A stretch of DNA of 64,000 nt from Candidatus Bathyarchaeia archaeon (GCA_049970895.1 JBMFMB010000001.1:1-64000), one strand, 5' to 3'; shown: positions 22,515 through 31,116, numbered from the stretch's first letter. Translations and numbers: made by a program. Notes: generated by a model not told the origin, from the letters alone.

Positions 22515-22856
22515 GTGAGCGGCACAGTGTTGGAAGATGCTGTTTCGGAAGCCTTCCGCAAGAGGGGCTTTATAGTTTTTACGAGGCAGAATCATTGTGA
22601 CGTTTTGGCTGTCAAGCCCGATATGAGTTTGGCTTACTTGGTGGAATGTAAGGATTATGCTTTATCCCGAAAACAGCAGGTTTTAGCCGTTAGAGAGCTT
22701 AACCGCAACTATACGCATGCCCTTGAGCTACTTATTAGGCAACGTTTATTTCCAGAAAAAATAGTGAAGGTTCTTGTTGCTAGGAGTTTTGCTTATCAAG
22801 CGAAGGGTATATTGCAGTACACACCTGAAAAGTTTATAGCACATATTTCCACTTAA
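22515..22856 (+). CDS. Small PD-(D/E)xK restriction-endonuclease-fold protein
   Basis: LED.V.EAF..RGF, CDVLA, LVECK motif. Confidence 0.7.
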   Translation: MSGTVLEDAVSEAFRKRGFIVFTRQNHCDVLAVKPDMSLAYLVECKDYALSRKQQVLAVRELNRNYTHALELLIRQRLFPEKIVKVLVARSFAYQAKGILQYTPEKFIAHIST

Positions 22857-22897: not shown

Positions 22898-23671
22898 TTA
22901 TTTTTGACAATTTTCGCAAACAAAGGTTTTTCTGTTGATTGGTTTTTGCATATAGAATTTAATTGGGTGTCCACAAACTCTGCAAAATCCGCTGAATCTG
23001 TTGTAGACGTAGAGGAGATCTCTGATGCTTCTTCCTTGCATTTTTAAGTCTAGGAATTCTTTGCTTAATTGCTCTGTGAAGTTAATAATCTTTTCAATCT
23101 CTTCTTGAGTTAGGTCTGCAACTTTCCTTTCTGGATTTACTTTTGCTCTGAAGAGAATTTCGTTCCTTAAAATGTTGCCCACGCCGGCTATGACTGACTG
23201 GTCTAATAAAGCAGCGCCAATTTTCTGGTCTGGAAATTTTGTTATGTTCTTTATTGCCTTTGTTTTGTCCCATTCACTGCTTAGGGGGTCTGGTCCAAGC
23301 TCTTTCTTTAATCTTTCAAGGATTTTGTCTTTATTGTCTATTTCAACGATGGGTGCGTTGTAAACAACAAGTTTCTGAAGGTCTCCTGTGATCATAAGCC
23401 TTACTCGTTCTTCTGGCTTAAGTAGTGGTTCGCTGATTTTATGGATGTGTATGGCTCCAAACATCATCAGATGAAGCCTTATGGCTATTTTATCAAAGAA
23501 TAGGAGGATGTTCTTGCCCAGCGAATCCGCCTTAAGGAATCTTTTCCCGACCAGTTTTTCGATAGGGATGAAAACCTTTTTGGATCTTGCATAGATTTTC
23601 CTAACAGTTTCTTCTCGAAATCTGTTAGTGATTCTAATCGCATAAGCTTTGGCTGAAGGACCCTCAACCAC
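22898..23671 (-). CDS. Fpg/Nei-family DNA glycosylase/AP lyase with NEIL3-like N-terminal Val
   Basis: GTG start gives MVEGP; LGKNILL, HLMMFG, LGPDPL, LLDQSVIAGVGNILRNEILF (H2TH), C-terminal CxxC...CxxC zinc finger. Confidence 0.92.
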   Translation of the reverse strand: MVEGPSAKAYAIRITNRFREETVRKIYARSKKVFIPIEKLVGKRFLKADSLGKNILLFFDKIAIRLHLMMFGAIHIHKISEPLLKPEERVRLMITGDLQKLVVYNAPIVEIDNKDKILERLKKELGPDPLSSEWDKTKAIKNITKFPDQKIGAALLDQSVIAGVGNILRNEILFRAKVNPERKVADLTQEEIEKIINFTEQLSKEFLDLKMQGRSIRDLLYVYNRFSGFCRVCGHPIKFYMQKPINRKTFVCENCQK

Positions 23672-23859
23672 ATGCAAAAGGATGCCTTTTCAAAATTTTA
23701 AGCGTATGGTTTTGTTGCCATGAAGTTTGACATTCTGGAATTGAAATGATGCGGAAAGATTAACTTGTACCGCTTTATAATAAGTCATAAATCGTAATAT
23801 AGGTTAAATCTTTTAAGCAGAACACCCTATAACAGAGAGCTGTGGAAGGTTGAGTCTGG

Positions 23860-24195
23860 ATGGTTGGGAGTGGGGAAGAGGAGAAGATTAGGCGTATATT
23901 GACGGATCCTAGGCTTTCGGCTATTAAGGCTATGTTGGAGAAGGACCATGCTATTGACTGCATTTTCCTCTTGTATATGGGGCGTGGTAAGTGGAAGGAA
24001 GCCAAAGAGTTTATGAGGGCTAATGGTTTGACGCTTAGTGATGGCACTTTTAGGGCTAGGATGATTGAGATCGAAGAGCTTGGCTTAGCCAAAAGCGAGC
24101 GCATCGACCCATTGAAGAAAAAGTATGAGAAGACGGAGTTTGGCGATAAGGTGGCGAGGCTTCTCCTGGAGTTCTTTGAAAAGCTTGAGAAGTAA
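23860..24195 (+). CDS. Winged-helix protein, hypothetical transcription regulator
   Basis: LSDGTFRARMIEIEELGLA...YEKTEFG pattern typical of wHTH. Confidence 0.6.
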   Translation: MVGSGEEEKIRRILTDPRLSAIKAMLEKDHAIDCIFLLYMGRGKWKEAKEFMRANGLTLSDGTFRARMIEIEELGLAKSERIDPLKKKYEKTEFGDKVARLLLEFFEKLEK

Positions 24196-24217
24196 GGCTT
24201 CTCTTCGGCTTTGCTGT

Positions 24218-24637
24218 TCAGTAGGTTTCGATTTGGAGGTTTAGTATTCTAGAGAAGTGTTCTGTGTTGCGTGTTACTAATGTTAGTTTGTAATGGGTTG
24301 CTGTGGCTGCTATAATGGTGTCTGAGAAGCTTATGGCTTGTCCGTTTCTGGCTAACTTGGCGTCTATTTCTGCTGCTGTTTTTGCAACTTCGTATGTGTA
24401 TGGTAAGATTTCGAATCTTATAAGCTCTGCTTCGGCTTTTTCAAGTTTGTTTTTAAGCAGTTTTTCGTCATGGCTGAAGAGGTAGTAGATTCCCCTTAGG
24501 TATTCGTGGACTGTTATTATGGATATGGCTTTGAACACTCCTTGCTCGTCTATTTCTTCTGCCTTTTTTACTGCGCCTTTATCGCCCCTTACAAGGTCTA
24601 TTAGGAATGTTGTGTCAAATATTTTCAATGGTGACAC
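24218..24637 (-). CDS. vapC: VapC PIN-domain toxin
   Basis: IFDTTFLIDL, TVHEY, SFSDTIIAATA, LVTRNTEHF. Confidence 0.93.
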   Translation of the reverse strand: MSPLKIFDTTFLIDLVRGDKGAVKKAEEIDEQGVFKAISIITVHEYLRGIYYLFSHDEKLLKNKLEKAEAELIRFEILPYTYEVAKTAAEIDAKLARNGQAISFSDTIIAATATHYKLTLVTRNTEHFSRILNLQIETY

Positions 24638-24641
24638 CGTG

Positions 24642-24872
24642 CTATTCTAGTAGTTTTCTTCTTTTTTCTTCATCGGCTTTTCTCTGGGGTTCGAAGGCTT
24701 TTAGAACTTTTTCCCAGTCTTCTTCGCTTATGGTTTTTGAACATGCTATGTCGCTTATTCTCATTCCCTTTTTAATTGATCTGCGTATGACATCGCTGAA
24801 GCTTTCGTTTGGGAGTTTTGCTTTTAGGAGCAGTTCATACACATCGTCTGACACAGCTATTGTTTTTGCCAC
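24642..24872 (-). CDS. vapB: VapB-family antitoxin
   Basis: MAKTIAVSDDVYELL...ESFSDVIRR; directly upstream of vapC. Confidence 0.88.
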   Translation of the reverse strand: MAKTIAVSDDVYELLLKAKLPNESFSDVIRRSIKKGMRISDIACSKTISEEDWEKVLKAFEPQRKADEEKRRKLLE

Positions 24873-24980
24873 TCTAATTTCACCTCATATTCATATGCAT
24901 ACAAATAATATAAGAATTTTGCTATTTTGCAACGGCTTAATTATTTAATTTTGCGACGAGGATGAACTGCAAAATTGAAA

Positions 24981-25190
24981 GCCCTCACCTAGTTTTTGTG
25001 GAAAATGGCTTTTGACGAGTTTTTATTTTTCTCTATCCCCTTCTTCTCTAGCCATTTTTGCGCTCACAAAACAGCCGCAAAACATTAACCTTCTATAGAT
25101 TTTGGACACCCTCCTTTCTAGTTTCATGTGTTTCGGTTGTGTTTTTAGCCAATAGTGTCTAGTTCTCTCTAGGTTTTTGTGGTTTGGTTT
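24981..25190 (+). repeat. Cluster of degenerate CCC(T)CYYTCTAG(N)TTTTTG repeats
   Basis: About 5 imperfect copies (near 24981, 25037, 25087, 25108, 25163); similar units at 47696-47825. Confidence 0.55.
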
Positions 25191-25299
25191 TGTTGTTTTG
25201 TCTTACAAATGGATAATATGGTGTATTAAGTCGTAAGATTTAAATTCTAAGTCTTCCCCTAACATACACGATAACAAAAAGGGAGGGATTAGAAAGAAA

Positions 25300-25776
25300 A
25301 TGAAAATACTAAAGAACAAGAAAGCCCTAAGCCCCGTAGTAGCATCCATCATACTCATAGCCGTAACAGTCGCCGTCAGCCTCGCAGTAGCCATATGGAT
25401 GGGAGCACTTACAACAGGATTCATGGCAACAGAACAACTAAGCTTTATCGACTGCCAATACGCCAACAATCTCAGCCACGTTAATATAACGCTCAAAAAC
25501 ACGGGATCCGGCTCATTAACAATAAGCAAAATCCTGATAAACGGATACTTAAATAGCTCAGGCCTAGGATGGACTGTTGTAGTTGGCGCTGATGCAACAC
25601 TTACACCAAATGAAGTGGTTGTCATAAAGGTATTGGCATCCGGATATCCAAAGGCAGCAGGAATTGTCGAAACCAACGGAAATAAAACATTTGATAGAGG
25701 CGCAAACTATGCATTTACAGTGATAACGTCTAAAAACAACCAGTTCGGACCATACACAAAGGCTGCTTCGCCATAA
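25300..25776 (+). CDS. Archaeal type IV pilin (class III signal peptide)
   Basis: MKILKNKKA/LSPVVASIILIAVTVAVSLAV prepilin N-terminus; LKNTGS..LTI..I.ING. Confidence 0.9.
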   Translation: MKILKNKKALSPVVASIILIAVTVAVSLAVAIWMGALTTGFMATEQLSFIDCQYANNLSHVNITLKNTGSGSLTISKILINGYLNSSGLGWTVVVGADATLTPNEVVVIKVLASGYPKAAGIVETNGNKTFDRGANYAFTVITSKNNQFGPYTKAASP

Positions 25777-25871
25777 AATTTCCTTTGCCTTGTTGGGATT
25801 GGGGGTAGGGTGTTAGCCAATCCGAAAATTTCCCCTTCTCTATTGTTCCCGTGTTGGAGGTGTAAAATCGT

Positions 25872-26297
25872 ATGGTAGTGGAATTGAAGGAGTATGCTTC
25901 GGCTGAAGACATAGCCGAAACCTTGGAAAAGCAGATCGCCGAAACTAAGAGCACTTTGGGCGAGTACCTACGCCGCTTAGATGAGATTAGGGCTTTGGCT
26001 GAAAAGTCTAAGAAAATCCGCGAAGTGGTTATGAAGTTGGCTGGGAAGAAGGCGGCTGCCGAAAGCCTAGGCGAAATAACAGTTGGAAGCCTAAGCATAG
26101 TGCTGGATGCAAACCCCTTCCATGAACTGACAGCCATTGAGCAGGTGGTTCGCAGCTATCAGGAGAGGCTTTTGGTTTTGCAGAAAGCCAGAGAAGCCCT
26201 AAAATGGCTTGACCAGCTTGGCGACACTGAAGGCTTAAAATACATTGTTGTTGAAAACGACGGCGTTCCAGAGCGCATCCTATTCAAGATAACATAG
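25872..26297 (+). CDS. Hypothetical coiled-coil protein
   Basis: GGAGGTG SD; two helical coiled segments flanking a short beta insert. Confidence 0.75.
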   Translation: MVVELKEYASAEDIAETLEKQIAETKSTLGEYLRRLDEIRALAEKSKKIREVVMKLAGKKAAAESLGEITVGSLSIVLDANPFHELTAIEQVVRSYQERLLVLQKAREALKWLDQLGDTEGLKYIVVENDGVPERILFKIT

Positions 26298-26327
26298 CCT
26301 ATTCCCTCCTCTTTCAAGTGGTGGAAA

Positions 26328-27176
26328 ATGGTGGAAGAAGACGTATACGCAATTGCACTACAAAATGCCCTAAACGAGATGCGGAACACTTGCCCAGACA
26401 TACAGCACGCCTTCATCTTCAAAGAAACAGGCGAAATAATCGCTGGAGACGCTGAAACTCCACAAAAGGTCATGGTTCGAGTTTTGGACGCCTTCAATGG
26501 CATCTTTAACAGGGCTAAAGCCATAGGAGGAATTGAGGCTATAACCCTAAAATGTGGCGGCGGCACTGTGGCACTCCACAGTTTCGGCGAGCATAACCTT
26601 GTCATGGTTACATCCGCAACTGCAGACTTAAACTACATAAAAACTTTAACCCGCATCCTAATCCCAACAGTTCTTAGGTTGCTGGAGAAAATCAGCCCTA
26701 CCCCCCTCAAAAACATACTAGTCCAGCAAACACCGCCAACCCCCACACCAACACCAACATTTAGCGAACCTGAAACCATGACAGTTGGCGAAGTTCTAGA
26801 GGGGGAGGTTGCCGAAGAGCCAAAGGAGCCAATTATAGAAAAGCCGAGGGAAGAGGAAATTAAGGCTGAAGTGCCATCCCTCGAAGTGCCAGCAACCCAA
26901 CTAATAGTGGAAAATATTGGAGGCTTACTGGTGCCATCAGACACCGTCCGCATAGACAACGAAACCCTAACCCAATGGGAAGAAATGTTTGAAGGCAAGA
27001 AAGTGGAATACGTTGAAATAGAAACCTTCGACGGAAAAACAACAAAATGCAAGGTCAAACCGATAAAGGACTCAAAATACCTTGGCAAGGGAGTTGTGCA
27101 AATCCCAGAAAAAATGCAGCTAACCCTAGAAATAAAGAAGGGCGAACTTGTCAGGGTTAGACCCATAATAGAGTAA
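26328..27176 (+). CDS. Roadblock/LC7-like N-domain + Pro/Glu linker + double-psi beta-barrel-like C-domain
   Basis: ALNEMRNTCPDIQHAFIFKETGEII (helix-beta-beta); PTPTPTP linker; DTVRID...GVVQIPEKMQLTLEIKKGELVRVRP resembles Cdc48-N barrel repeats. Confidence 0.6.
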   Translation: MVEEDVYAIALQNALNEMRNTCPDIQHAFIFKETGEIIAGDAETPQKVMVRVLDAFNGIFNRAKAIGGIEAITLKCGGGTVALHSFGEHNLVMVTSATADLNYIKTLTRILIPTVLRLLEKISPTPLKNILVQQTPPTPTPTPTFSEPETMTVGEVLEGEVAEEPKEPIIEKPREEEIKAEVPSLEVPATQLIVENIGGLLVPSDTVRIDNETLTQWEEMFEGKKVEYVEIETFDGKTTKCKVKPIKDSKYLGKGVVQIPEKMQLTLEIKKGELVRVRPIIE

Positions 27177-27191
27177 AATGGAGGAAAAACC

Positions 27192-27611
27192 ATGACAAAG
27201 AAGAAGAAAGCTTTGGAAGAGACAGCAACCGCCGAGGCGCTAACCCATCCAATAGCCATAGAAACAGCCACACCAGAAGACCTAAAAACCCTCCTAGAAG
27301 AGATTAGGGGCTACGACGGCGTTATAGGTTATATAATGCGAAACGCCACATCAGCCACAATAGACCTAAAAGACCCAACAAAACTAATAGAATACGCCAT
27401 CCTCTCCTCATCAGCCCTAGACGCCGCAGAAGAACTATCAGAACTTTTCAACCTGGGAAACTTCGAAAACATCCTCGTAGAAGGAAAAGACATTAAAATC
27501 CTCTCATTAAAAATAGGCGAAAACAGAGTAAGCATTTTTCTCGATAAAAAAGCCGACATAGAAAAACCCCTCAAAAACTCCACACGTTTTAAAGGGGCTT
27601 TTAGGGCTTAA
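27192..27611 (+). CDS. Roadblock/LC7 (MglB-like) domain protein
   Basis: LEEIRGYDGVIGYIMRN, AEELSELFNLGNFENILVEGKDIKIL...VSIF. Confidence 0.75.
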   Translation: MTKKKKALEETATAEALTHPIAIETATPEDLKTLLEEIRGYDGVIGYIMRNATSATIDLKDPTKLIEYAILSSSALDAAEELSELFNLGNFENILVEGKDIKILSLKIGENRVSIFLDKKADIEKPLKNSTRFKGAFRA

Positions 27612-27720
27612 TCCCTCATTTTCAAATTTAACTTCCCTTTTTCAGAACCCTTAAATTTCTCTACACAACTATTTCTATTGGGAGAAAGGCTCTTTTAAGC
27701 CTCCAAAAGGAGGCAAATTA

Positions 27721-28011
27721 TTGAACCCAAAGCCAACAAGCGGTAAGAGACACAGCGGTAAACATCGAGGAAGCCTAGACATAATTGCAGACATTCTAGA
27801 GGCTTCAAAGGTGAAAGCGAGAAAAACATATCTCATGTACCGCTGCAACCTAAGCTTCAAACAACTGGAAAACTACTTGAACCTTCTCCTAAAAAGGGGA
27901 CTCATAAGCACTGTTGAAGACAACGATAACAATGCAAGCCTGTTCAAGATTACGGAGAAAGGCGAATACTTCCTAGAAACCTATAGGGGCTTACAGGGAC
28001 TTATGAAGTAA
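27721..28011 (+). CDS. Winged-helix transcription regulator (HTH_45/DUF4364-like)
   Basis: R.SLDIIADILE, KTYLMYRCNLSFKQLENYL..L...GLI, FKITEKG. Confidence 0.85.
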   Translation: MNPKPTSGKRHSGKHRGSLDIIADILEASKVKARKTYLMYRCNLSFKQLENYLNLLLKRGLISTVEDNDNNASLFKITEKGEYFLETYRGLQGLMK

Positions 28012-28233
28012 AGTTTTTAGGAAGATTTCGCTAAGCCTCACCCTTTCGCCACCTTCATCCACAACTAAAAATTCATATTTGATTAGAAATTCTAATGCTT
28101 TCTTAAAGGCTCGGCGGCTAAGTCCCGTTTTCTGCCTTATCTCCTCTGCTAAGTGCCATTCACCATCCTCCAGCAGCTCAAGAATTTTTGCAATAGACGT
28201 TTTCGTTGAATGTGTCCCCCACCGTACTTGCAA
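27991..28233 (-). CDS. Small winged-helix protein
   Basis: KILELLEDGEWHLAEEIRQKTGLS...LEFL.KYEFL. Confidence 0.65.
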   Translation of the reverse strand: MQVRWGTHSTKTSIAKILELLEDGEWHLAEEIRQKTGLSRRAFKKALEFLIKYEFLVVDEGGERVRLSEIFLKTLLHKSL

Positions 28234-28305
28234 TTTTGCCAGACTTTGTTTAAATGCCTTCTGAAGTTTTCTTTTAGAAATATTTTCCAGAACAAAAACC
28301 CGGAG

Positions 28306-31116
28306 TTAGCCGCCAATCTGCTTTCTTAAAACCTCCTCAACCTTTTCAAGGGCCTCTTTAAGCTTTTCTGGGCGTGTACCTCCACCCTGGGCAAAGTTTG
28401 GTCTTCCACCGCCCCCACCGCCTATTATTGCCGAGGCTTCTCGGACTATTTCAGCCGCGTCCACACCCTTCTCGACAGCCTTCCTCCCAGCCATAACCAT
28501 TAACCGTGCAGTCTTACCATCAGAACCATAAAACAAAGCGACAGCCGCATCATCCTTCATTATTATTTCGTTGGCTGTCTGAACCATCACATCAACGTTC
28601 AACTCGTCCTTAAAATCGCGGATCACAAGCCTAACGCCGCCAATTTCGCGAACCGCCTCAACACCTTTTTCGGCTCCAACACCCACAACAGCCTGTTTAG
28701 CCAGTTTCTCGACGAGCTTTTTTCTCTCCGCCTTCACCTCCTTCAGTTCCTTAACAAGCCTTTCAGCGGTTTTGTCCAGCTTTTCTAATGGGGCATTTAG
28801 GATTTCTGAAACCCGCCAAAGAAGCTCCTCACTCTTCTGCACAGCCCTTAAGGCTTGGATTCCGACGGCATAAACAAGCCTCTCAACACCATCTTGGATT
28901 CTCTCTGAACGGATGATTTTTATAAAGCCTATTTCGCCAGTGTTCCGAACATGGGTTCCAGCGCATGCCTCAACATCCCAGTCTCCAACCTTCACAACAC
29001 GAATTTCCTTGCCCGGAACAGCCCCGCCCTGGTAAAGCCTAAAACCGTATTGGCTCTCGGCTTCTGACCTTGGAAGCCACATGGTCTCAACGGGTATGCC
29101 CCTAAAAACAGCCTCGTTGGCTAAAGCCTCTATTTTCTGCACTTCATCCCTTGATAACCTACGATAATGAGTGATGTCAAGTCTTGAACTTTCAACACCC
29201 TTTTGTGTTCCGAACTGCCAAACATGCTGCCCCAAAACGCGTCTTGCCGCACCATTAACGATGTGGGTGGCTGTGTGCGCCTTCATGAGGGCATACCGCC
29301 TATCCCAGTTGATGACACCTTTAACAGTGGCACCTTCTCTGGGAGCCTTCTTGCCGTCAATCTTGTGGATGATAACTTTGCCAACCTTCTGTACGTCTAA
29401 AACTTCAGTCTTGCCATCGTCAAAAATCAGCCAACCAATATCTGATGGTTGCCCACCACCCTCCGGGTAGAAGCATGTCTTGTCAAGAACGACGTATTCG
29501 CCGCCGACAACCCTTAAAACCTTAGCCTCAAACTCCCGCATATACTGGTCCTCATAGTAGAGCGCTTCTGTTTCTGGAAGACCAGCCACTTTATCCCTAA
29601 GCCACTTTTCAGCTTTAGCCTCCTCTTCGGTCGGCTTCTGGATTTGCATGTGCCTCTCAGCAACCAAAGCATAGAAGTTCTCCGGGACAGGTGCCTCCAA
29701 ACCCTCGCTTTCAGCCACCTCTTTAACAATTTCTGGCGGGACACCATGCGAGTCATAAAGCTCAATCATAGTTTCAACTGGAACATACGCCACGCCCTTA
29801 GCCTTAAACTCGCCGGCAAGCCTCCTTATTAAGCGCTCGCCCCTAGTGATGGTCTCCTTATACTTCTCCTCCTCAACCGCCAAAATCTCCATTATTTCGT
29901 CGCGCATCTCCATGAGATGCGGATAATCCATAGACCAATAATTGATCTGCAAATCAAAAATGTCATAAAGCCTATCCGGGATGCCCATCATCCTTAGTAG
30001 GCGGTAGATTCTGCGAAACAGAAGCCTAGCCAAATAGCCCTCCTGAACATTGGATGGCACAACACCCTCAGAGAGGATGAAGGTTAGGCATTTTGTGTGG
30101 TCTGTAACCGCAAAGGCGTTCTCAACTGGAAGCAAAACCTCATCCAGCTTTTTGGCGTCAACGCCAACGGCTTCGGCTATTTTACGCCTAGCCTCAACCC
30201 TACCAACATTCTTGTCTAGGCTCATTAGGGCTGAAAACTTTGCAACCCCCGCCAACAAATCATAATCAACGTTTACCCCAGCCATTTTGAAGACTTTATC
30301 GAGCAACTCGCCATATATGGCGTGGAAGGCGCTCACCGAGCCCTGCGAAAGCCAAGCGTACCTGTCCAACCCGTAACCAGTGTCAACTGTGCGTATGGGC
30401 AACCTAACAAACTGGTTGCCAACAACCTTAAACTGCATAAAAACTAGTGTGGCAACCTCCAAACCACGAACAATGCATTCTAGGCATGGACCGGCATTTC
30501 CGCCTCCAGACCAAACCTCCTCTTTGTAGGTTACCTCCTCTGGTTTTACGCCCAAATCCCGTATGAACTCGTCATGATAGCGGACCGTCTGGTCCTTCCA
30601 GTAAACCTCCCTGTCGGGATAGTTGAAGGCGTGATGCCCACCCATCTCAAAAATTGTCACGTACTTGCCGAAGGTTGGACCGGTGTTGGTTATGTCCACA
30701 AGGCGGATGCAAGGCTGGGCAACAACAAGCGGATTTGCCGGTGGTGGAGCAATCCCCTCTGTGACGTAGGGTTGGAAGTCAATTATGCTTGCATGCGTCA
30801 AGTATATGTCGTCCCGCCACCTAGCCACAACAGGGTAGGGCTTTATCCTCGTGTGCCCCCGCTTTTCGAAAAAGGATAGGAAAAATTCCCGCATCTCGCG
30901 TAGGTTGTAGCTCCGCTTTGTCGGCGGGTTCCCAATAAAAGTGTAGTGGGCGCATCCTTCTGGTCTGGCTTCCCCGCATGTTTCTTGTTCAGAGTTTAAG
31001 GTCCAATAGTATGTGCCGCATTTTGGGCAGAGTTTCCTAACATAGCCCTTTTCCTTGAAGAATGGGAGGGCGTACTCCTCGGCTGGAAATCTTTCCAACA
31101 TAGACGCCTCAGACAA
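28306..31116 (-). CDS. alaS: Alanine--tRNA ligase
   Basis: QPCIR, VDTGYGLDR, FYPEGGGQPSD, HTATH editing motif, ACAGTH, GGGGGRPNFAQGGG. Confidence 0.97.
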   Translation of the reverse strand: MSEASMLERFPAEEYALPFFKEKGYVRKLCPKCGTYYWTLNSEQETCGEARPEGCAHYTFIGNPPTKRSYNLREMREFFLSFFEKRGHTRIKPYPVVARWRDDIYLTHASIIDFQPYVTEGIAPPPANPLVVAQPCIRLVDITNTGPTFGKYVTIFEMGGHHAFNYPDREVYWKDQTVRYHDEFIRDLGVKPEEVTYKEEVWSGGGNAGPCLECIVRGLEVATLVFMQFKVVGNQFVRLPIRTVDTGYGLDRYAWLSQGSVSAFHAIYGELLDKVFKMAGVNVDYDLLAGVAKFSALMSLDKNVGRVEARRKIAEAVGVDAKKLDEVLLPVENAFAVTDHTKCLTFILSEGVVPSNVQEGYLARLLFRRIYRLLRMMGIPDRLYDIFDLQINYWSMDYPHLMEMRDEIMEILAVEEEKYKETITRGERLIRRLAGEFKAKGVAYVPVETMIELYDSHGVPPEIVKEVAESEGLEAPVPENFYALVAERHMQIQKPTEEEAKAEKWLRDKVAGLPETEALYYEDQYMREFEAKVLRVVGGEYVVLDKTCFYPEGGGQPSDIGWLIFDDGKTEVLDVQKVGKVIIHKIDGKKAPREGATVKGVINWDRRYALMKAHTATHIVNGAARRVLGQHVWQFGTQKGVESSRLDITHYRRLSRDEVQKIEALANEAVFRGIPVETMWLPRSEAESQYGFRLYQGGAVPGKEIRVVKVGDWDVEACAGTHVRNTGEIGFIKIIRSERIQDGVERLVYAVGIQALRAVQKSEELLWRVSEILNAPLEKLDKTAERLVKELKEVKAERKKLVEKLAKQAVVGVGAEKGVEAVREIGGVRLVIRDFKDELNVDVMVQTANEIIMKDDAAVALFYGSDGKTARLMVMAGRKAVEKGVDAAEIVREASAIIGGGGGGRPNFAQGGGTRPEKLKEALEKVEEVLRKQIGG

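Follow-up and report, generated by a model that had tools for sequence, protein, structure and literature searches.

A conserved Roadblock–barrel gene cluster of Bathyarchaeia as a probable accessory module of a type IV pilus-like machine

Introduction

The question raised by the locus described here is which cellular machine is served by a cluster of genes that places two Roadblock proteins beside a pilin. The locus lies in a stretch of 64,000 nt from a Candidatus Bathyarchaeia archaeon (GCA_049970895.1, JBMFMB010000001.1:1-64000), hereafter the window, and encodes a pilin-like protein, a helical-hairpin protein (cc), a protein consisting of a Roadblock domain and a double-psi beta-barrel (DPBB; the protein is hereafter the fusion), a second Roadblock-like protein (Rb2), and two winged helix-turn-helix (wHTH) proteins (wH1 and wH2). 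Archaeal type IV pili (T4P) are abundant and diverse, and little is known of their components in the cytoplasm other than the ATPase and TadC. A first-pass annotation of the window had proposed a candidate undescribed signalling module that may couple pilus or motility control to an unlinked GTPase or AAA+ ATPase. We consider the gene set to be an accessory or regulatory module of a T4P-like machine rather than a GTPase signalling module, with a probability of roughly 0.6, and the best reading of the cc family is that it forms the core of this module. The observations that carry this reading are the folds of the encoded proteins, the conserved operon, the linkage of cc genes to T4P genes, and the tendency of the module to occur together with one type of T4P locus.

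Conservation of the gene cluster

The fusion gene was detected in 28 of 41 related genomes, and loci from 18 of these relatives were surveyed for synteny. The cc, fusion, and Rb2 genes are contiguous in all 18 genomes, with Rb2 located directly 3' of the fusion gene in each, and a pilin gene is located directly 5' of cc in 16 of them, both misses being contig ends. At least one wHTH gene is present 3' of Rb2 in 15 of the 18 genomes; wH1 is adjacent in 11, and wH2 also recurs beside the cluster in relatives. Further upstream, a small gene designated orf111 precedes the pilin gene in all 10 genomes whose loci extend that far, and its product shows 63–93% identity. The order orf111, pilin, cc, fusion, Rb2, and wHTH is constant across families of the order to which the window genome belongs, and the flanks outside this segment vary between lineages, which sets the borders of the cluster. 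The gene cluster is real and not a product of chance.

In the window, the cc, fusion, and Rb2 genes are separated by 30 and 15 nt, and wH1 and wH2 are convergent with an overlap of 21 nt. All six open reading frames (ORFs) of the first-pass annotation and the two short gaps were recovered at the positions it had given, and the synteny of the module genes with each other and with the pilin gene, which it had named as a check, is kept in the relatives. It had overlooked the upstream start of the module at orf111.

The members of the cluster differ in their conservation. Pilins are 39–84% identical among the relatives, and cc is 72–100% identical in relatives in which the fusion is only 29–84% identical; cc is the best-conserved gene of the cluster. 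A total of 1226 homologues of the fusion have a similar length, and the organism-named ones among the matches listed are all from Bathyarchaeia or Bathyarchaeota. Shorter forms are rare (44 versus 1226 full-length proteins); many of them are labelled 'partial' or come from very short contigs, with a few on long ones. When a profile of the fusion was searched against 401 genomes of the phylum, 32 genomes matched. The convincing matches were all in the order of the window genome, i.e. in 18 of 25 genomes of family f1, the single f2 genome, all four f6 genomes, and all six f7 genomes, with none in families f10 (0 of 2) and f11 (0 of 8); the two remaining matches were marginal (E ~1e-3). In the listed matches for which the coordinates of cc were also listed, the fusion gene directly adjoins cc. 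By its sequence distribution, the Roadblock pair appears to be a lineage-specific addition in this order.

The cc protein and its family

The first-pass annotation had also overlooked that no other member of the cluster is as conserved or as widespread as cc. A HMMER search with cc yielded 137 cluster representatives of ~140 amino acids (aa), reaching down to ~20% identity, and a family profile (A2) built from 59 of them detected the family in 150 of 401 sampled Thermoproteota genomes. The family includes proteins of Pyrobaculum, where they are annotated as hypothetical. Two of these Pyrobaculum homologues (L058 and relatives) carry the Pfam domain PF28121.1, which may be a recently defined family for cc. 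In addition, a cc paralogue of ~180 aa, whose disordered N-terminal tail is rich in Lys and Glu, was found in other Bathyarchaeia (loci L103–L111) and is not present in the window genome. A second ATPase/TadC pair is located near this paralogue in three of the nine loci, and the pilin genes there are duplicated.

The structural model of cc (predicted local distance difference test score [pLDDT], 89.6; predicted template modelling score, 0.78) has the element order b1, a1 (aa 11–57), b2–b3, a2 (aa 82–116), and b4–b5. The two helices, which are 47 and 35 residues long, are antiparallel, with one beta hairpin between them and another at the C-terminus. A Foldseek search of the PDB with this model gave nothing at E <=0.001, the best rows (E >=0.06) being V1-ATPase subunit D and prefoldin, and VIA-align returned only generic helical hairpins (best Z, 9.1). 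Pfam and NCBIfam scans of the 59 family members gave matches of coiled-coil type only (prefoldin, FliJ, SMC, and DUF7310); FliJ models match four of the 59 members in Pfam and six in NCBIfam. V1-ATPase subunit D, FliJ, and prefoldin share with cc an antiparallel helical hairpin of similar length, and the top Foldseek row, V1 subunit D 7vw7_G, has a template modelling score (TM) of 0.52 on the query and a probability of 0.96. This is a resemblance and no evidence of kinship, with no match at E <=0.001 and with Z scores of up to 9.1, which are common for helical hairpins.

Two other candidate affiliations of cc were rejected. YlqD, suggested as a relative by the ESM Atlas (0.81), was below the useful range. 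The idea that cc is a divergent Roadblock protein, raised by its a-b-b-a-b-b order of elements, was dropped because the model shows a helical hairpin of extended shape and has no Roadblock match.

Linkage to type IV pilus genes

The linkage of the cc family to T4P ATPase and TadC genes, which extends across the phylum, was likewise absent from the first-pass annotation. We examined cc loci from 40 genomes outside Bathyarchaeia, roughly one per genus, and found a T2SSE ATPase gene and/or a T2SSF (TadC) gene within ~7 kb of cc in 12 of them, as confirmed by Pfam. The number expected by chance is 1–2 of 40, a rough estimate that assumes 2–4 ATPase genes per genome of ~1.7 Mb, as counted with only four candidates scored in each. 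In the usual layouts, cc is accompanied by a gene for a large CarboxypepD_reg surface protein, the ATPase gene, and the TadC gene, or a TadC gene and small genes abut cc. In two of the loci outside Bathyarchaeia (L074 and L085), the TadC–cc pair is followed by genes for a radical SAM protein, a TrmB regulator, and a KaiC-like ATPase of ~260 aa, the last of which recalls ArlH of the archaellum.

The window genome contains two loci with T4P core genes. The first, on contig C3 (L112), is a complete system, consisting of a gene for a secreted protein of 891 aa with beta-helix, PKD, and MG4 domains (C3:24843-27518), a T2SSE gene with a PilB3_C tail and a T2SSF gene (C3:27578-30887; ATPase, 27578-29206; TadC, 29184-30887), five further genes, two of which encode class III-like N-termini, a pilin gene, and a prepilin peptidase gene (C3:35308-36159; Peptidase_A24 and Arc_PepC_II). 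The second (L113, C1:101034-106719) contains an ATPase gene, TadC split into two genes, a pilin gene, and a gene for a protein of 609 aa, with T2SSE and T2SSF at C1:103279-106719, and shares its contig with the module, which lies ~75 kb upstream. The cc-adjacent ATPases available for comparison, i.e. eight from the 40 loci outside Bathyarchaeia and one from a bathyarchaeial relative (G030, locus L020), are without exception (9 of 9) nearer to the C3 ATPase (47–81% identity) than to the C1 ATPase (42–45%). In G030, the module directly abuts an ATPase and a TadC gene of the C3 type. A BLAST comparison of the secreted protein of the C3 locus with the large CarboxypepD_reg proteins that neighbour cc in other classes showed no homology.

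The co-occurrence of the fusion with a C3-type TadC orthologue was scored in the 41 relatives. With an orthologue defined by >=63% identity, a line that was set after the gap between 63 and 38% had been seen, and with relatives that are not independent of each other, both genes are present in 25 genomes, neither in nine, and the two are discordant in seven. TadC occurs without the fusion in four genomes (G006, G010, G012, and G032) and the fusion without TadC in three (G031, G036, and G018, the last by no more than a partial match). Completeness is <90% in five of these seven. Counted by family, 10 of 12 are concordant. Within one genus (g30), cc and the fusion are both missing from the five genomes that show no T2SSE match, and four of the five with T2SSE have both. 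The C3 locus is likely to be the partner machine of the module.

Table 1. Genes, domains, and other features of the module and its partner locus. Positions without a contig name are those of the window.
Feature	Position	Strand	Description
orf111	23860-24195	+	111 aa, winged-helix-like; first gene of the conserved cluster
VapC and VapB pair	24218-24872	-	Located between orf111 and pilin
pilin	25300-25776	+	Pilin-like protein with class III (prepilin) signal peptide
Hairpin	25793-25826	no strand	10-nt inverted repeat, 90% complementary, in the pilin–cc spacer
cc	25872-26297	+	141 aa, cytoplasmic helical hairpin with small beta caps
fusion	26328-27176	+	282 aa, Roadblock, disordered linker, and DPBB
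Roadblock/LC7-fold domain of fusion	26343-26693 (aa 6-122)	+	AlphaFold2 model and Foldseek
Pro/Thr/Glu-rich disordered linker of fusion	26709-26879 (aa 128-184)	+	pLDDT <50
Double-psi beta-barrel of fusion	26895-27167 (aa 190-280)	+	Model and Foldseek; like the Cdc48/VAT N-terminal subdomain
Rb2	27192-27611	+	139 aa, second Roadblock-like protein with Lys-rich N-terminal tail
wH1	27721-28011	+	HTH_45/Sso10a-family winged-helix protein
wH2	27991-28233	-	Small winged-helix protein, convergent with wH1
C3 T4P locus (L112)	C3:24843-36159	no strand	Complete T4P system of the window genome

Domain architecture of the Roadblock proteins

The fusion was modelled with AlphaFold2 from an alignment (A1) of 24 homologues, giving a mean pLDDT of 77.7. 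Its N-terminal domain has the order a-b-b-a-b-b-b-a (H6-21, E25-32, E37-40, H46-64, E71-76, E79-86, E89-96, and H101-122 in the model; H, helix; E, strand) and shows the fold of the Roadblock/longin-like superfamily. Foldseek matches of this domain in the PDB have E-values of 3.5e-7 (9jue) to 1e-5 and also include 7f8m, 3cpt, 3kye, 1j3w, and 3leq, and TM on the target is 0.65–0.87 (9jue, 7f8m, 3cpt, 1j3w, 6h5b, and 3leq), reaching 0.87 for 3leq. The matched structures are Asgard Roadblock proteins (9jue and 7f8m), LAMTOR2/p14, MglB (1j3w and 6h5b), and 3leq. At the sequence level, the fusion has no match to Robl_LC7 (PF03259) at E <=1, and on the Roadblock side the A1 profile reaches the PDB weakly (E 0.19 to 7f8m). 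The linker varies in both length and sequence across the alignment.

The C-terminal barrel comprises two b-b-a-b repeats (E190-197, E206-209, H211-220, and E228-232, followed by E238-245, E256-260, H261-267, and E274-280 in the model) related by a pseudo-twofold arrangement. Its Foldseek match is the DPBB of the VCP-like ATPase 7dg9 (E 2.6e-7; TM on target, 0.84; root-mean-square deviation, 2.1), and the A1 profile matches reconstructed DPBB proteins in the PDB (E 7e-5) and, weakly and over one repeat only, AbrB-family regulators (E 0.055–0.072). The only Pfam match of the barrel is CDC48_N (PF02359) on residues 203–280 (E 0.0039; 17.8 bits), which is below the cut-off of 35.1. The invariant residues of the barrel are G199, D205, V207, D210, W217, G236, K242, K244, P260, L267, G272, V275, and P279. 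The fold is shared with the N-terminal DPBBs of Cdc48, VAT, and VCP-like proteins (7dg9, 7dg7, and 7dbo; TM 0.79–0.84; 21–24% identity). Unlike in those proteins, the barrel of the fusion is free of AAA+ and beta-clam (CDC48_2) domains, the chain ending at residue 282, just past the barrel, and it is tethered to a Roadblock domain by a disordered linker of 55 residues. Because the AlphaFold2 model and the Foldseek matches agree, the first-pass assignment of a Roadblock domain joined to a Cdc48-N-like barrel is right.

Rb2 is probably Roadblock-like, as indicated by weak sequence matches: Robl_LC7 at E 0.0029 (17.7 bits, below the cut-off of 23), which is the only match to this family in the genome, and, in a profile search of the PDB, 7yh1 (E 0.003), 7f8m (0.008), and 3l7h (0.015). 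HHalign places Rb2 in register with the Roadblock domain of the fusion (E 0.0014; probability, 18%).

The pilin and its upstream region

The class III N-terminus that had been proposed for the pilin is borne out by a match of residues 6–37 to the archaellin/type IV pilin N-terminal model TIGR02537 (28.7 bits; cut-off, 20). The domain so matched, that of archaeal type IV pilins, comprises a short leader that is basic, a site of cleavage, and a helix that is hydrophobic; matches to UpsA (E 2e-4) and Pfam Pilin_N (E 0.0099) are both below their cut-offs. Three ORFs of the genome, that of the pilin included, fit the class III regular expression, and the same genome encodes a prepilin peptidase and an ATPase/TadC assembly core. 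The hairpin in the pilin–cc spacer could lower read-through from the pilin gene and so keep pilin well in excess of the accessory proteins.

Proposed role of the module

In the reading that we prefer, that of a pilus accessory or regulatory module, cc would dock on the cytoplasmic side of the ATPase/TadC platform of the C3 type. The Roadblock domain of the fusion and Rb2 would pair as a heterodimer and associate with cc, the barrel serving as an adaptor domain, and this heterodimer with its tethered DPBB would be an addition to cc in the order of the window genome. Together, cc and the Roadblock pair may tune the assembly or use of the neighbouring pilin, and the wHTH proteins would control transcription of the operon.

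Several observations weigh against this reading, among them the limits given above on the co-occurrence counts. In the window genome, the module adjoins neither T4P core locus, one being ~75 kb off and the other on another contig. Outside Bathyarchaeia, T4P core genes are missing within 7 kb of cc at 28 of the 40 loci, and there cc lies beside housekeeping genes (e.g. for CCA-adding enzyme, succinyl-CoA ligase, pyrophosphatase, and UPP synthase); a class III ORF is located beside cc in only one of the 40. Searches with hidden Markov models (HMMs) of the Roadblock domain, the barrel, and Rb2 gave no match in 20 of the non-Bathyarchaeia cc loci or in the nine paralogue loci, and Pfam scans of 170 neighbouring ORFs gave no Robl_LC7 match. 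With these HMM and Pfam queries, which are insensitive, no Roadblock gene was detected next to cc outside Bathyarchaeia, so that the pair may serve a function of its own. The sequence matches that assign the Roadblock fold to Rb2 are weak.

A further proposal, which we regard as tentative and rather unlikely, is that the Roadblock heterodimer and cc form a GTPase-free switch complex on a PilB-type hexameric ATPase, with the barrel capturing a partner. By analogy with FliJ and V-ATPase subunit D in their hexamers, cc may insert in a stalk-like manner, and the tethered barrel would capture, e.g. the N-domain of the ATPase or the cytoplasmic domain of TadC.

Alternative explanations

The main rival would confine the module to transcription. 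The Roadblock domain would respond to a ligand or partner, the barrel would bind DNA in the manner of AbrB/SpoVT cradle-loop barrels, and the fusion, together with three winged-helix proteins, would set the expression of the pilin without contact with the pilus machine. Three wHTH-type genes do bracket the cluster. A convergent wHTH pair had been described in the first-pass annotation, and wH1 is a clear case, matching Pfam HTH_45 (E 2.3e-20; 72.8 bits; cut-off, 25.5) and NCBIfam Sso10a_fam (73.9 bits; cut-off, 60); wH2 has a weaker winged-helix match, to CvfB_WH (23.4 bits; cut-off, 22.9), and weak matches to other HTH families. For the third, orf111, 11 sequences share 50 invariant positions. 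Pfam gives nothing significant for it (the best being DUF3775, E 0.17), a profile search of the PDB gives no match at E <=0.1, and clusters of HxlR-type wHTH proteins (0.93) and WHD_ArnR1 (0.91) in the ESM Atlas provide a lead only. A basic stretch in the barrel, with K242 and K244 invariant and K250 and K254 nearly so, and the contact of the A1 profile with AbrB-family regulators (E 0.05–0.07) would suit DNA binding, and Roadblock-like output domains are described in archaeal response regulators (NitrOD3; PMC5847659). Against this, the barrel is modelled as a monomeric DPBB of two repeats whose best matches are the N-domains of VCP/Cdc48 proteins (TM 0.77–0.84) and not AbrB dimers, and the explanation accounts neither for the extreme conservation of cc nor for the ATPase/TadC genes linked to it in other classes. 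We consider the transcriptional explanation doubtful.

Regulation of a small GTPase is quite improbable. In this explanation, the Roadblock dimer would act, like MglB or Ragulator, as a GTPase-activating protein, a guanine nucleotide exchange factor, or a platform for an unlinked small Ras-like GTPase, with a role in pilus polarity. The fold is indeed like that of MglB (1j3w, 6h5b, and 6hjm), LAMTOR2, and Asgard Roadblock proteins, homologues carry the JGI label 'predicted regulator of Ras-like GTPase activity', and the MglB/MglA switch of Myxococcus and Thermus also has a biological tie to T4P. Unlike in that switch, no MglA-like GTPase was detected in the window genome, the similarity of sequence is not significant, and MglB lacks a barrel domain. 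At a completeness of 97.26%, the genome contains no match to the Ras family, for which the identical search was positive in 14 of 14 control genomes. Its sole Arf-family match is the G domain of FeoB, located between feoA and the membrane part of feoB, and its Roc matches are sub-threshold and fall within ORFs of 597 and 406 aa. No GTPase gene was seen in the conserved neighbourhood of nine related loci either, and no cognate small Ras-like GTPase of the kind that an MglB-type regulator serves was thus found in the genome or operon. Because the Ras, Arf, and Roc searches gave no small GTPase, a partner of the MglA type is unlikely, and coupling to an unlinked GTPase is not supported; a very divergent GTPase could still be present.

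Least probable of all is an AAA+ adaptor, in which the free Cdc48-N-like barrel mimics, competes with, or feeds the N-domain of Cdc48/VAT on a scaffold formed by the Roadblock pair: the top structural matches of the barrel are the N-domains of VCP-like ATPases, CDC48_N is the only Pfam match, and a Cdc48 gene lies 1.3 kb from cc in one non-Bathyarchaeia locus (L080), but only the DPBB half is present, with neither beta-clam nor AAA module, the CDC48_N score is half of the cut-off, Cdc48 is a neighbour in one of the 12 T4P-linked non-Bathyarchaeia loci scanned, and nine Bathyarchaeia loci showed no link to AAA+ genes, either phyletic or by synteny.

Neighbouring features

In the window genome, a VapC gene (PIN; E 1.9e-17) and a VapB gene (VAPB_antitox; E 3.7e-12) are inserted between orf111 and pilin. 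The pair is not present in the orf111–pilin spacer of a locus of the same genus (L021), and the spacer of G030 contains a different PIN-like gene (32% identical), which suggests repeated insertion at this spot. Beside the start of vapB, at 24915-24980 within the long upstream region of pilin (427 nt, 24873-25299), direct and inverted copies of TTTTGC(A/G)AC-like words are present and could be a candidate operator for VapB or a wHTH protein.

The segment between the gene for ribosomal protein S13 and the module contains a short ORF with an Mrr_cat-like restriction-endonuclease fold (22515-22856; E 2.4e-4) and a gene for an Fpg/Nei-type DNA glycosylase (22898-23677; H2TH, E 1e-19). Nearly all sampled words of positions 23800-28300 are present in public sequencing runs (shares of 0.96 and 0.92) that carry the label hot springs metagenome and derive from a single sample, which may be the one that yielded the assembly of the window; no RNA run is listed among the public runs containing this region.

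Relation to known systems and implications

The description of the module as undescribed stands in part. Full-text literature searches found no description of the Roadblock–DPBB fusion or of the operon. In Makarova, Koonin and Albers 2016 (PMC4858521), Roadblock proteins of arCOG02603 are reported in various archaeal T4P loci, with a suggested auxiliary or regulatory role, and further uncharacterised cytoplasmic proteins are tied to particular T4P clades. The proteins described here are likewise cytoplasmic, of Roadblock or, in the case of Rb2, probably Roadblock-like fold, and genetically linked to archaeal T4P components. Unlike the proteins reported in that paper, they form a fixed pair, one member of which is fused to a DPBB, and this pair is located with a pilin and cc, mostly away from the ATPase/TadC core.

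The cc proteins are a family of ~140 residues that occurs in about one third of the Thermoproteota genomes sampled and is genetically tied to one type of T4P. To this family, a single order appears to have added two Roadblock proteins, in a genome without a detectable small GTPase and in an architecture, a Roadblock domain with a free Cdc48-N-like barrel, that we did not find described in print. That Roadblock domains regulate NTPases other than GTPases was proposed long ago from genome context, and if the proteins of this module act on the pilus motor, they would be a case of such regulation. If the switch-complex proposal is true, it would define a new class of T4P motor regulator, and cc would be a widespread and overlooked core accessory of Thermoproteota pili. 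The cc family is a tractable target in cultured hyperthermophiles, e.g. Pyrobaculum.

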